A DNA stretch of 20,268 bases from Promethearchaeota archaeon (GTDB lineage: Archaea > Asgardarchaeota > Lokiarchaeia > Sigyniarchaeales > SOKP01), in NCBI GenBank assembly GCA_016839745.1, contig JAEOTS010000030.1, positions 1 through 20,268 of the forward strand. Direction: 5' to 3'. Below the pieces are notes generated by a model. That model ran no database searches. It was not told where the DNA came from and saw only the letters and a program-made list of their open reading frames with translations. The position numbers and the translations under genes are program-made. Within the stretch, counting starts at the first letter, position 1; each line of letters begins with the position of its first letter. This document shows positions 7,541-11,475 of this stretch, piece by piece.

Positions 7541-9103
7541 TTATTTGAGTTTCCTCGTGTTAACAATAAGATCTAACAAGAGTATAATATTATCGTATAT
7601 TTTTTCTCTGTAATCTGAACCGATTTTGAGAAAGAGAACTGATACAACTTTCTCTTCTAAATCCTTATCGATAACAAATTCTTCCATTAATTGTGGATAG
7701 TACGTATCGTCGGAGACTCGGAGCCCGATAAGAACGGCGCGTTTTTTCCTCAACTTTCTGATGACATTCATAAGAGTCTCTTTCCATTTTGGATCAATAT
7801 GTTCCTTTTCTCGGGCGTCAAAAATTATAAAAACGCCATCTGAATTAGAGAGAGTAAACTCGTCATATGTGTAGCCGCTAATTATCAATCCATTTTTGTA
7901 GGGATATAACTTCTCGTTGTGGTTATCTTTTAACTTCGAGAATTCACCCAATCCATCGATATTGATGATCGTCTGGAATCCGGGATTCCAGTTTAAATTT
8001 TCTGTAATAAAGGTTAATTCTAGTATTACAAGTTCTTTTAAAGTCGAAACAATTGCTTCTGTTAAACTTTTCTCTATAAGATCTTTTTCTTTTTTTTTAC
8101 TTTTTATAATATAATGGTAAGCAATTAATTCAAAGGCGTCTTTGACATTGCTTCCCGTCAGAGCGCTCGTTTCAATGTATTCTATACCACTTATTGATAG
8201 TGATTTTGCTAATGCTTCTCCTTCAGCTATAGATACCACTCTTTGTTCAGCTAAATCGTCTTTATTCCCAACAAGAATGATTGGAATATCTGATTCATCA
8301 ATGAGTTCATTGAGTTCTTTAAACCAATCTTTAACTTCTTCAAACGATTCCCTATTAGTGATGTCGAAAACAATGAACGCAGCTTCTGCACCGTTGTAAT
8401 AAATTCTACGAAAGCGTTTAAAGTATTGTTGTGCTCCAATATCCCATAGTTGAACACTTAATTCGTTTCCTTGAAAGTCAAAATTATGAGCAAAGATGTT
8501 AAGACCTATTGTAGCTCGATAATCGCGAGAAAACTTGCGTTCTACAAATTGACGAATTAATGATGTTTTCCCTACCTCATGGTTCCCTACGATTACGAAT
8601 TTAAAGGAATAAGATACGCATTCGTCTAATGCAGATTGACAAATTGATTCTTTTAGTCTTTCGTGTCTTTCTTTTTCATAATCAAAATCGGGGATCGCTA
8701 ATTGAAGTGTATCGCCCTCACTAGAATTAAGTATCTGAGCGGATTTTTCAGCTAAGAAGTACGTATAGGGCGCAACTTTTTCTACTGATGCCATGCTATT
8801 AAAAATTAGACTTAGAATTCTCTCTTCGTCAATTGTGATAAAAAGTAATCGATGTTCGTCCGTGTCAAATGATGCCGTTCCAAATTTCTTAAAGCTGAAC
8901 TCGTTCCTTATTCTTTCTAAAACGGGATTTATTAGTGTAGTTAATACCGATACGATTTCTATGTTACTTTCAGTATCCTTTCTTTTTTCCCCTGCAATAA
9001 CTAAACCTTCGACATCTGATATAATAATTGCTTCTACATCAGAGAATCTTTCCAGAAAATTGTTTAAAATCTCGTCAAATAGTCGTTTTCTATTCACTAA
9101 CAA
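7541..9103 (-). CDS. Roadblock/LC7 - Rab-like small GTPase - degenerate GTPase-fold fusion protein (paralog 2)
   Basis: N-terminal roadblock pattern (VEAIIISDVEGLVIAG). G1 GNHEVGKTS, G2 YRATIG, G3 variant WDIGAQ, G4 GNKDD, G5 ETSAL. The C-terminal ~160-aa alpha/beta domain has no G motifs. The TTG start aligns with the paralog start. Confidence 0.88.
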   Translation of the reverse strand: MLVNRKRLFDEILNNFLERFSDVEAIIISDVEGLVIAGEKRKDTESNIEIVSVLTTLINPVLERIRNEFSFKKFGTASFDTDEHRLLFITIDEERILSLIFNSMASVEKVAPYTYFLAEKSAQILNSSEGDTLQLAIPDFDYEKERHERLKESICQSALDECVSYSFKFVIVGNHEVGKTSLIRQFVERKFSRDYRATIGLNIFAHNFDFQGNELSVQLWDIGAQQYFKRFRRIYYNGAEAAFIVFDITNRESFEEVKDWFKELNELIDESDIPIILVGNKDDLAEQRVVSIAEGEALAKSLSISGIEYIETSALTGSNVKDAFELIAYHYIIKSKKKEKDLIEKSLTEAIVSTLKELVILELTFITENLNWNPGFQTIINIDGLGEFSKLKDNHNEKLYPYKNGLIISGYTYDEFTLSNSDGVFIIFDAREKEHIDPKWKETLMNVIRKLRKKRAVLIGLRVSDDTYYPQLMEEFVIDKDLEEKVVSVLFLKIGSDYREKIYDNIILLLDLIVNTRKLK

Positions 9104-9230: not shown

Positions 9231-10796
9231 TTACGAATTAATTATTGTACTAAACATAACATCAAGTTCATCATAGATTTCCAATCGGTACTCAAGGCCT
9301 ATCTTAAAAAACAAGAGAGAGACCAATTTTTCTTCCAAATATTCATTAACATTAAATTGTTCCATAATATCTGACCAATCGATTTCGTCAGAAACCCTAA
9401 TACCAATCAGAATTACTTTATTTTCTTTTAAATTTCTAATAATATTAATAACAACTTCCTTCCACTTAGGGTCGATATGTTTCTTGTTTCGCGCGTCAAA
9501 GATGACAAAAACACCATCAGAATTGGCAACATCAAAAGTATCAAAAAGAAAGTTCTTTACAAGCAATCCGTTGGAGTATTGATACAATCTTCTTTCTTTG
9601 TCATCTATTAATTTATCGCAATCACATAAACTATTAACCTCACTTAAGATTTGCAACCCAGGGCTCCAAAACGGATTTTCGGTTATAAACGTGATCTCTA
9701 AATTCTTATTCTTGTTTAAAATCGAATTAATCTGAATCATTAAATTTTCTTTAAGTTTTTGTTCCTCTCGTTCTTTACTCTTCGTTATATAGTGATAAGC
9801 TATTAAGCTAAATGCATCTCCAATATTCTCACCCGTTAAAGCGCTGGTTTCAATATATGAAAAATCGCTATCACTATTTTGTTGTGAGAGCTCGTCAACT
9901 AACGCTATTCCTTCTTTATATTGAACACTTCTCAGATCAGACAAATCGATCTTATTCCCTACAATTACTATGGGAATGTTCTTATTTCCAAGAAATTCTT
10001 TAAGTTCCTCATACCATTTTTTTATATTTATGAAGGTTACTCGTTCACAAACATCAAAAACTATAAACGCTGCTTGCGTTCCGGTATAATATGTCTTTCT
10101 AAATCGTTTGAAATAATCCTGCCCTCCAAGGTCCCAAAGTAAAAAACTAACTTCATTTCCATAAAAGTTCATAGAATGTGAAAGAACATTTAAGCCAAGA
10201 GTAGAGCGGTAATCAAGAGAAAATTTGTTTTCTACAAATCTTCGTACTATTGATGATTTTCCTACTGCTTTATCACCTACGATTATAAATTTAAATTTAT
10301 AAACTCCTCCCGAATCTAAACGCATCTGATAAATCTGTTCTTTTATTCTCCCTGTGTCGCTTATAGTATCAATCTCCGTTCCAAAGTTAGGTATATCAAC
10401 CTGAATAATATCTTCTTCGCTTGCGTTAATAATTTGAGCTGTTTTCTCTGCAAGAAAGTAAGCATAGGGGCTAACATTATCAACAGAAGCCATTGTATCT
10501 AATACTACGCTAAGAGTTGTGTTTTCATCTATAGAAATAAAGAGTAATCGATTTTCTTCTGTGTCAAAACTCGCGGATCCAAACTTTTTAAAAGCAAACT
10601 CGTCTCTTATTCTTTCTAGAACTGGATTTATTAGAGCGGTTAATACCGATACTAATTCCATATCGACACTCGCTCTTTTTTGACCAGCTATGATAAAACC
10701 TTCGTGATCTGATACAATAAGAGCATCTACATCTTCATACTTCAGTAAAAATCTAGTAAGAAGCTCGTTAAACAACCGTTTTTTGTTTAAAGTCAT
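9231..10796 (-). CDS. Roadblock/LC7 - Rab-like small GTPase - degenerate GTPase-fold fusion protein (paralog 1)
   Basis: Roadblock (VDALIVSDHEGFIIAG). G1 GDKAVGKSS, G2 YRSTLG, G3 WDLGGQ, G4 GNKID, G5 ETSAL. Colinear with the 7541-9103 protein over its full length. Confidence 0.9.
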   Translation of the reverse strand: MTLNKKRLFNELLTRFLLKYEDVDALIVSDHEGFIIAGQKRASVDMELVSVLTALINPVLERIRDEFAFKKFGSASFDTEENRLLFISIDENTTLSVVLDTMASVDNVSPYAYFLAEKTAQIINASEEDIIQVDIPNFGTEIDTISDTGRIKEQIYQMRLDSGGVYKFKFIIVGDKAVGKSSIVRRFVENKFSLDYRSTLGLNVLSHSMNFYGNEVSFLLWDLGGQDYFKRFRKTYYTGTQAAFIVFDVCERVTFINIKKWYEELKEFLGNKNIPIVIVGNKIDLSDLRSVQYKEGIALVDELSQQNSDSDFSYIETSALTGENIGDAFSLIAYHYITKSKEREEQKLKENLMIQINSILNKNKNLEITFITENPFWSPGLQILSEVNSLCDCDKLIDDKERRLYQYSNGLLVKNFLFDTFDVANSDGVFVIFDARNKKHIDPKWKEVVINIIRNLKENKVILIGIRVSDEIDWSDIMEQFNVNEYLEEKLVSLLFFKIGLEYRLEIYDELDVMFSTIINS

Positions 10797-10899: not shown

Positions 10900-11475
10900 A
10901 TGACTACATGTATTATTTGTCATTTGGGTATTATTGAAGGAGTAGATTCTTCCCAAGATTGCCCCAATGGTCATCTCGCTCACATCGATTGTTTGAAAGA
11001 ATGGTTACTTCATTCTTCAAACTGTCCTCTTTGTAGAGAACCGTATCCAGATCAAGTTCTCAACCAATTTAAAGAATTTATTAATCAAAAAGAGACAGAA
11101 AAACAAGCTGCTATAGAGAATGAATTAAAGCAAGAAGAAATGAAAAAAATGGAACAGGTTGCTTCTAAAATAACCTTTTTGAAATTTCTTGAATCTATCG
11201 AAATATTGATTAATGAACAAGAATTCGAGTACGCCTTATCACGATTAGACTTGCATAATAACGGTAGTAATTCAATCCAATGGGAACACGATATCTTATT
11301 TTTAAAAGGGAAGATTAATTACATAAGAGGACGTTATGATCTGGCAATTAATCAGTTATTTAAATTAGTAAAAGAAAAATACGACTATCCCGAGGGATTT
11401 CTCTACCTTGGAAAGGCATACGAAGCCTTAGGTTTAGATGATAAAGCACAATGGGCGTATGAAAGAGTTAAATAA
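10900..11475 (+). CDS. RING-H2 finger plus TPR protein (putative E3 ubiquitin ligase)
   Basis: CIIC-x13-CPNGH-x2-H-x2-C-x3-W-x6-CPLC is a C3H2C3 RING with the conserved Trp. A charged helical linker is followed by TPR-like motifs (LFLKGKINYIRGRYDLAI; YLGKAYEALGLDDKA). Confidence 0.82.
   Translation: MTTCIICHLGIIEGVDSSQDCPNGHLAHIDCLKEWLLHSSNCPLCREPYPDQVLNQFKEFINQKETEKQAAIENELKQEEMKKMEQVASKITFLKFLESIEILINEQEFEYALSRLDLHNNGSNSIQWEHDILFLKGKINYIRGRYDLAINQLFKLVKEKYDYPEGFLYLGKAYEALGLDDKAQWAYERVK

Follow-up and report, generated by a model that had tools for sequence, protein, structure and literature searches.

The C-terminal domain (CTD) of a Roadblock-GTPase fusion protein encoded in 20,268 nucleotides of DNA from a Promethearchaeota archaeon (contig JAEOTS010000030.1, positions 1 to 20,268; this whole stretch is hereafter the window) is a real, conserved and apparently undescribed domain of the pseudoGTPase type. 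We consider it rather probable that the CTD is a GTPase-derived class-i type pseudoGTPase that is free of nucleotide and acts as a fixed docking module, with a TPR protein perhaps as its partner. Class-i pseudoGTPases are defined as domains with a GTPase fold and degenerate G motifs (PMC12490416), and the CTD has both, the fold as a prediction. An earlier note on this DNA, made from its letters, had proposed an archaeal pseudoGTPase, and that reading is supported by a predicted Ras-like topology, by the loss of motifs and by purifying selection.

Two genes of the window encode such a domain. Paralog 1 (P0001, 521 aa; 9231..10796, minus strand) joins a Roadblock domain, a Rab-like G domain and the pseudoGTPase CTD, as seen from its open reading frame (ORF), Pfam matches and a full-length AlphaFold2 (AF2) model. 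Paralog 2 (P0002, 520 aa, with a TTG start; 7541..9103, minus strand) has the same three-domain design according to its ORF and Pfam. The two genes are tandem, co-directional and colinear, and their products are 52% identical overall and 47% identical in the CTD. In paralog 1 the pseudoGTPase domain as modelled covers residues 351-521 (9234..9746, minus strand; core 9234-9701), as delimited by AF2, fold searches and hhalign, and in paralog 2 alignment and profile search place it at residues 350-520 (7544..8056, minus strand). Positions 9231-9701 correspond to residues 366-521 of paralog 1 plus the stop codon, and positions 7541-8023 to residues 361-520 of paralog 2.

Predicted fold and probable GTPase ancestry

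AF2 was run twice on different alignments, once with the CTD alone (residues 351-521, 35 rows) and once with full-length paralog 1. The CTD-only model reached a mean predicted local distance difference test score (pLDDT) of 92.6 and a predicted template modelling score (pTM) of 0.89, and its elements follow one another as a helix, beta1, alpha1, three consecutive strands, beta4, alpha3, beta5, two short helices, beta6 and a long terminal helix. The same elements were recovered at 366-520 in the full-length model. The Ras-fold order of elements claimed in the earlier note was found in both runs, with every named element in place: beta1 LEITFIT (residues 366-372), helix 1 (379-385), the hairpin RLYQYS / LLVKNF (404-407 and 411-416), beta4 GVFVIFD (428-434), the alpha3 helix PKWKEVVINII (443-455), beta5 VILIGIR (461-467), two short helices (474-489), beta6 LLFFKIG (493-499) and the terminal helix (503-520). 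An additional strand (395-399) beyond the textbook Ras fold lies ahead of the hairpin, and the switch-II helix (alpha2) is missing between beta3 and beta4, where AF2 places a loop of ~10 residues. As modelled, the CTD is therefore an incomplete Ras fold, without alpha2 and with a seventh strand, and these two features make it most like the GDP form of Arf proteins. Furthermore, residues 351-362, the last turns of the linker helix, pack on the CTD core in the CTD-only model as the N-terminal helix does in Arf-GDP, and the helix H2-13 of the model aligns to Arf from residues 2/4 onward.

A Foldseek search of the CTD model against the PDB returned mainly small GTPases (E about 1e-6), and after re-alignment of the top 1000 matches the top 50 consisted of Arf, Arl, Sar or Rag GTPases only, the best structural matches being GDP-bound Arf proteins (HodArfR1-GDP, 8OUL; Arf1-GDP, 1HUR). 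Part of the Arf lead is due to the first 13 residues of the construct, a helix that overlays the Arf-GDP N-terminal helix. By fold alone, the order of elements and the superposition on solved G domains place the predicted model among the small GTPases. The best non-GTPase folds were XOAT1 (11.7), a TIR domain (10.8) and REC domains (9.3-9.7), and the atypical GTPase-like domain of Fbx4 scored 9.5-9.7. Such matches would be expected if the CTD had no GTPase ancestry and resembled GTPases by superposition only, the domain itself being of a Rossmann-like three-layer alpha/beta type (flavodoxin, REC, TIR or SGNH-like). This we hold to be very improbable: the Z scores of GTPases are higher by 2.5-3 units, their alignments cover about 160 residues as against 108-125 for REC and TIR (XOAT1 162), three helix-free successive strands are unlike a (beta-alpha)5 arrangement, and profile comparisons (see below) find, at the equivalent beta4-beta5 region, a similarity to Rab/Rho and Arf-like G domains that exceeds shuffled controls. 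Flavodoxin-like and CheY-REC folds in particular, with five parallel strands alternating with helices, do not agree with the AF2 models, in which the three adjacent strands have no intervening helix. The non-Ras outcome that the earlier note had named as fatal to its proposal, such as a flavodoxin- or REC-like prediction, was thus not obtained.

At the level of sequence, Pfam recognized no family on the CTDs of either window paralog or of 35 orthologs. The stretch of the CTD that can still be aligned with Rab/Rho G domains comprises beta4, N-S-D-G-V-F-V-I-F-D-A (residues 425-435; 9492..9524, minus strand), identified by PDB profile search and hhalign, and W445 of alpha3. When a CTD profile was searched against the PDB, Rnd1/Rho6 (E 0.011) and Arf1 (E 1.6) were both matched with beta4-alpha3-beta5 in register. 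With hhalign, 70 distinct CTDs aligned with 41 diverse Rab-like G domains, drawn from the window's own genome, over 63-67 columns (P 6.4e-5 to 1.1e-4, probability 56-64%), and this relic, a weak though consistent signal, spans beta4-alpha3-beta5-alpha4 of the CTD in register with the Rab-like domains. The real score was 34.6, against 22.6 for the best of 30 column shuffles and 14.7 for the reversed profile. A profile of 14 Arf/Rag-like domains matched the same region less well (P 1.5e-3), and 0/35 CTDs matched the Arf profile PF00025 at E <= 1, though the structure of the CTD fits Arf-GDP best. The CENP-M profile PF11111 gave no CTD match at E <= 1 either; in protein-language-model features the CTD lay nearest to CENP-M clusters at 0.87, a value below the 0.9 level and a lead only.

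A hydrophobic beta4 that ends in F-D and is followed by a Trp in alpha3 is a pattern that we take to be typical of Rab/Rho/Ras and not of Arf. Because the relic is Rab/Rho-like and the Rab-like profile matches better than the Arf/Rag-like one, we take the CTD to descend from a Rab-like G domain whose shape has drifted towards that of Arf-GDP. It differs from Arf in having neither an Arf sequence signature nor a Pfam Arf match, and its counterpart of the Arf N-terminal helix is an internal linker and not a free myristoylated end. The internal duplication put forward in the earlier note agrees with the Rab/Rho character of the relic, but the protein's own G domain was not singled out over other Rab-like domains; in hhalign, columns 71-115 of the CTD matched columns 71-116 of the protein's own G-domain alignment with P 0.012 and a probability of 3.5%, a signal too weak by itself that rose only when more diverse profiles were compared. 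The CTD may have originated by internal duplication, which is weakly supported by these sequence comparisons, or by capture of another Rab-like domain. Profile search found two CTD copies in the window's genome, and a HMMER scan of all its ORFs with the CTD profile gave no significant match beyond them. Sub-threshold GTPase matches in that scan share the beta4-beta5 register and are individually meaningless. The sole ORF outside the family to be matched, C130_+1_13308 (421 aa, contig C130), aligns marginally (E 0.003) over residues 195-255 with CTD profile positions 13-71 and is not a GTPase by G-domain hidden Markov model.

Motif loss and selection

Residue frequencies were obtained over 70 distinct CTD sequences (residue number equals CTD position plus 350). 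The motifs GxxxxGK[ST], DxxG, [NT]KxD and SAK were missing from 70/70, so that the loss of GKS/T, DxxG and NKxD first noticed in the window holds throughout these CTDs and extends to all of G1 to G5. The sites are occupied by other conserved residues. The former P-loop, E-N-P-F-W-S-P-G (residues 373-380; 9657..9680, minus strand), was located between beta1 and alpha1 by alignment and AF2; the loop reads T/S-E-N-P-F-W-S-P-G across the family, with W377 in 64/70, P379 in 69/70 and G380 in 63/70 sequences. A plain loop without DxxG follows beta3. By alignment, the former G4 site is L-I-G-I-R-V-S-D (residues 463-470; 9387..9410, minus strand) in place of V-G-N-K-x-D, with the consensus G465-[IV]-R467-V-S469-[DE] (G465 69/70, R467 58/70), and the former G5 site at the end of beta6 is F-F-K-I-G (residues 496-500; 9297..9311, minus strand) in place of S-A-K/L, with the consensus F-K498-I-G500. 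In the two full-length relatives that are most distant (26-28% identity), G1 reads V-G-D-N-P-F-W-N-P-F and G4 reads G-I-K-T; these letters may be faint echoes of G-D-x-x-x-G-K-T and N-K-x-D and are suggestive only.

With two Pro and a Trp in the former P-loop, the amide cradle that binds phosphate should be lost and the phosphate site filled, and from the sequence we infer that the CTD does not bind guanine nucleotide. The same loops could also be read as a remodelled pocket in which the CTD still binds a small ligand, a non-canonical nucleotide or a metabolite, which would make it a sensor and not an inert scaffold. The highest conservation does lie on the loops after beta1, beta4, beta5 and beta6, where P-loop NTPases hold their ligand (W377, P379, G380, D434, G465, R467, S469, K498 and G500), and an aromatic residue together with Arg, Lys and Asp might in principle accommodate a base and a phosphate. 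However, the CTD has no Walker A lysine or Ser/Thr, no Mg-binding Thr/Asp and no NKxD, the two prolines would remove the amide anion hole, and the pseudoGTPase domain (psGD) of AAGAB and the pG1/pG2 domains of p190RhoGAP, with similar motif loss, bind no nucleotide. We regard a ligand-binding CTD as quite unlikely and continue to favor the nucleotide-free docking module.

Conservation was followed in 33 loci collected from species-representative genomes, whose CTDs and G domains were aligned. Identity of the CTD to its orthologs runs from 87 to 61%, parallel to that of the G domain (86-58%). Across eight colinear orthologs, the pairwise ratio of nonsynonymous to synonymous substitution rates (dN/dS, Nei-Gojobori) was 0.03-0.15 for the CTD and 0.03-0.16 for the G domain, values at which dS is near saturation in many pairs and with which the closest pair (dS 0.14-0.28) agrees. 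The Roadblock domain behaved like the CTD, and the inter-domain linker gave 0.10-0.45. The CTD is under purifying selection; the ortholog identities and low dN/dS bear out what the resemblance between the two paralogs had suggested in the earlier note, namely that the domain is well conserved and apparently under selection.

Distribution, gene neighborhood and proposed role

In a CTD profile search of 400 genomes of the phylum, matches were found in 124/134 genomes of the window's Lokiarchaeial family, and one weak match occurred in a sister family. Another family of the same order (f3) gave no match in its 14 genomes, two of them single-contig (4.4 and 6.0 Mb), and neither did the rest of the 400-genome sample, bar one probably mis-binned match. 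The CTD is probably a lineage-specific invention and not the ancestor of any eukaryotic pseudoGTPase. A single-sequence search of the CTD alone against 1.84 billion protein representatives retrieved 42 clusters, all of the same family and none a true GTPase; their short members are fragments of full-length proteins, and the search does not point to any gene that encodes the CTD by itself. The window's relatives carry Promethearchaeota/Lokiarchaeota labels as metagenome-assembled genomes (MAGs), and the window DNA itself, which is AT-rich (GC about 0.27-0.42), was found in marine-sediment metagenomes. Some labels are discordant, and mis-binning or mislabelling is likely for each of them: the lone strong match elsewhere comes from genome G073 of an otherwise negative family (f16), the gene cluster of locus L012 (DATKTW010000108.1) lies in a MAG labelled 'Candidatus Nanopelagicaceae bacterium', and records among L004, L028 and L031 bear Hermod- or Hodarchaeota labels.

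The family takes several forms. Most genomes carry two copies; genera g11 and g13 mostly have one, which indicates that a heterodimer of paralogs is not obligatory. A third clade (L028-L033), about 50% identical, resides at another genomic location. In a fourth form of 894-896 aa, found independently in a metagenome contig and two genomes (L036:1510-4194; L049:1026-3716; L050:1097-3784), the CTD is followed by a coiled coil and a strong array of about seven TPR repeats. TPR repeats also occur next to paralog 1 in the window, in a divergent gene that encodes a RING-H2 domain, a coiled coil and TPR (10900..11475, plus strand; Pfam zf-RING_2 1.2e-7, TPR_11 9e-5). This RING-TPR gene adjoins the paralog-1 ortholog in 26/27 loci of the paralog-1 type, at identities down to 51%, and the 27th locus is a 2.7-kb contig that ends before the flank in question. 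The order ThiD/N, RING-TPR, divergent paralog 1, paralog 2 and convergent isocitrate/isopropylmalate dehydrogenase is kept in L001-L027, across which paralog-1 identity falls to 60%. The conserved neighbor and the natural CTD-TPR fusions together point to TPR proteins as functional associates.

We propose the following mechanism. The CTD would keep a small-GTPase alpha/beta core near that of GDP-bound Arf, with seven strands, no switch-II helix and a packed N-terminal helix, and the former GTP loops would be replaced by the strongly conserved E-N-P-F-W-S-P-G, G-[IV]-R-V-S-[DE] and F-K-I-G. This dead domain would sit on a helical stalk behind the live Rab-like domain, by way of a continued alpha5. 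The Rab-like domain presumably cycles, with the Roadblock domain as a dimerization or regulatory platform, a role established for Roadblock domains in MglB and Rag/Ragulator. The CTD would not cycle and would offer the Roadblock-Rab switch a permanent surface for docking proteins, a role suggested by analogy with the AAGAB psGD, CENP-M and the p190RhoGAP pG domains. The docked partner would most likely contain TPR, as the conserved RING-TPR neighbor does, and the GTP state of the Rab-like domain, controlled via the Roadblock domain, would be coupled to it. A more specific version is possible though doubtful, and we offer it tentatively: the CTD would be the first archaeal class-i pseudoGTPase, derived from Rab, frozen in an Arf-GDP-like form, coupled by a helix to the live Rab-like domain and serving as a nucleotide-independent adaptor to a TPR/RING partner of the ubiquitin-ligase type.

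The connection between the two domains bears on another explanation, in which the CTD acts in cis or in trans: it would pair with a live Rab-like domain, its own or the paralog's, and the resulting G-pseudoG pseudo-dimer would set GTP hydrolysis or nucleotide exchange, as happens between the subunits of dimerizing GTPases. In the full-length model the first helix of the CTD is the continuation of the Rab-like alpha5, a single long helix at residues 325-363 (9708..9824, minus strand), and the CTD always stands directly behind the G domain with this one long helix between them. Conserved CTD residues, including R467 (58/70), lie on the face by which G domains dimerize, and most genomes of the main genera retain the tandem arrangement of the paralogs. 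These observations would suit a pseudo-dimer, yet AF2 gave no confident packing between domains (pTM 0.55, switch I pLDDT <50), and the mostly single copies of g11 and g13 show that paralog heterodimers are not obligatory. We judge an action on the G domain to be unlikely and retain the docking module.

Several points weigh against the docking module as well. The structure of the CTD was predicted from an alignment only 35 rows deep, and the arrangement of domains is uncertain, given the full-length pTM of 0.55. Sequence homology between the CTD and GTPases is modest (hhalign probability 56-64%). The most conserved residues of the CTD lie on the former nucleotide loops, a placement as compatible with a pocket for a ligand as with a docking surface. 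The assignment of a TPR partner is weak, because TPR proteins are common and specific similarity is lacking; the TPR region of the fusion form and the RING-TPR neighbor share only generic TPR similarity (E 0.085).

Relation to known GTPases and pseudoGTPases

The CTD resembles the AAGAB psGD, CENP-M and p190RhoGAP pG1/pG2 in combining a predicted GTPase fold and the loss of all G motifs with conservation, and eukaryotic class-i domains are, where their role is known, protein-binding modules. The AAGAB domain, a class-i pseudoGTPase, serves protein binding alone and binds the longin/roadblock-fold sigma subunits (PMC12490416). In p190RhoGAP, too, nucleotide-free pseudoGTPase domains follow a GTP-binding domain in one chain. 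Unlike the eukaryotic class-i domains, the CTD is archaeal, confined to one family, fused to a Roadblock-Rab protein and without alpha2, and it has no detectable sequence relation to them.

Among archaeal proteins, the closest comparison is with Asgard small GTPases fused to Roadblock or longin domains; for one cultured Lokiarchaeon the GTPase architectures were catalogued in terms of G, R, L and '?' domains (Tran et al. 2024, PMC10933270). The window paralogs share the 'RB-GTPase' design of that catalog, an N-terminal Roadblock followed by a Rab-like G domain; extra domains are given there only as '?', and no dead GTPase-shaped domain is described. Liu et al. described Roadblock and GTPase families and operons, and not the CTD. 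In a literature library, itself incomplete, no description of an archaeal pseudoGTPase was found, and queries pairing pseudoGTPase with archaea or Asgard gave only general reviews. The window's genome has 56 ORFs with a Ras-like G domain and at least 7 two-domain Roadblock-G proteins (about 340-380 aa) that lack the CTD; C181_+0_4148 is the closest of them. Like the Rag GTPases, the window paralogs contain both a G domain and a Roadblock domain, and their genes are neighbors. They differ from the Rag GTPases in the inverted order of domains, in a Rab-like G domain (Pfam Ras 1e-43 vs Gtr1_RagA 5e-5) and in the extra third, dead G-like domain, and the single-copy genera argue against an obligate heterodimer.

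No other prokaryotes have sets of Ras-superfamily GTPases as large as those of the Asgard archaea, which are searched for the origins of eukaryotic membrane and signalling systems, and work on pseudoGTPases has until now centered on eukaryotes. With a conserved dead G domain joined to a live one, this lineage would already have put inactivated GTPase folds to new use as scaffolds. If the proposed role is true, the GTPase-plus-pseudoGTPase scaffolds known mainly from eukaryotes would have an Asgard precedent in this family; the weight of the finding is limited, as the CTD is confined to one Lokiarchaeial family and seemingly absent from the closed f3 genomes. The protein also offers a simple, expressible one-polypeptide system in which to study the contribution of a pseudoGTPase to a GTP switch.

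The remaining domains of paralog 1 agree with a Roadblock-GTPase fusion, with a predicted N-terminal Roadblock ahead of a Ras domain. The Roadblock-type domain occupies about residues 1-125 (10422..10796, minus strand), as judged from AF2 secondary structure (alpha-beta-beta-alpha-beta-beta-beta-alpha) and weak Pfam matches; the N-termini of the paralogs matched only faintly to MAPKK1_Int/LAMTOR3 and Robl_LC7 (Robl_LC7 at 0.013 in paralog 2). The active-looking Rab-like G domain, placed by Pfam and alignment at residues 166-345 (9762..10301, minus strand), has intact motifs (G1 GDKAVGKS, G3 DLGGQ, G4 NKID, G5 TSA), and the Pfam Ras matches are strong in paralog 1 (7.9e-43, residues 169-333) and in paralog 2 (4.3e-48). 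At G3, paralog 2 (8429-8446) has W-D-I-G-A-Q, as in most of the family, in which the Gly comes one position early and an Ala stands at the usual DxxG glycine; paralog 1 has D-L-G-G-Q. Two 151-nt contigs from one sediment metatranscriptome match perfectly inside paralog 2 (8444-8594 and 8619-8769), which hints weakly that the gene is transcribed. No contig of that metatranscriptome lies on either CTD and DNA carry-over is possible, so these contigs say nothing on CTD expression. Finally, a 430-aa ORF on the minus strand of contig C129 in the same genome encodes a further, different tandem: a Rab-like G domain (8-172, E 6e-41) and, behind it, a half-degenerate G-like domain (220-382, iE 0.042). 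In the latter the P-loop reads G-N-E-E-V-Q-K-F and beta4 S-D-G-V-I-V-F-Y-D, and NKxD is missing; this G-like domain may be a less eroded pseudoGTPase.

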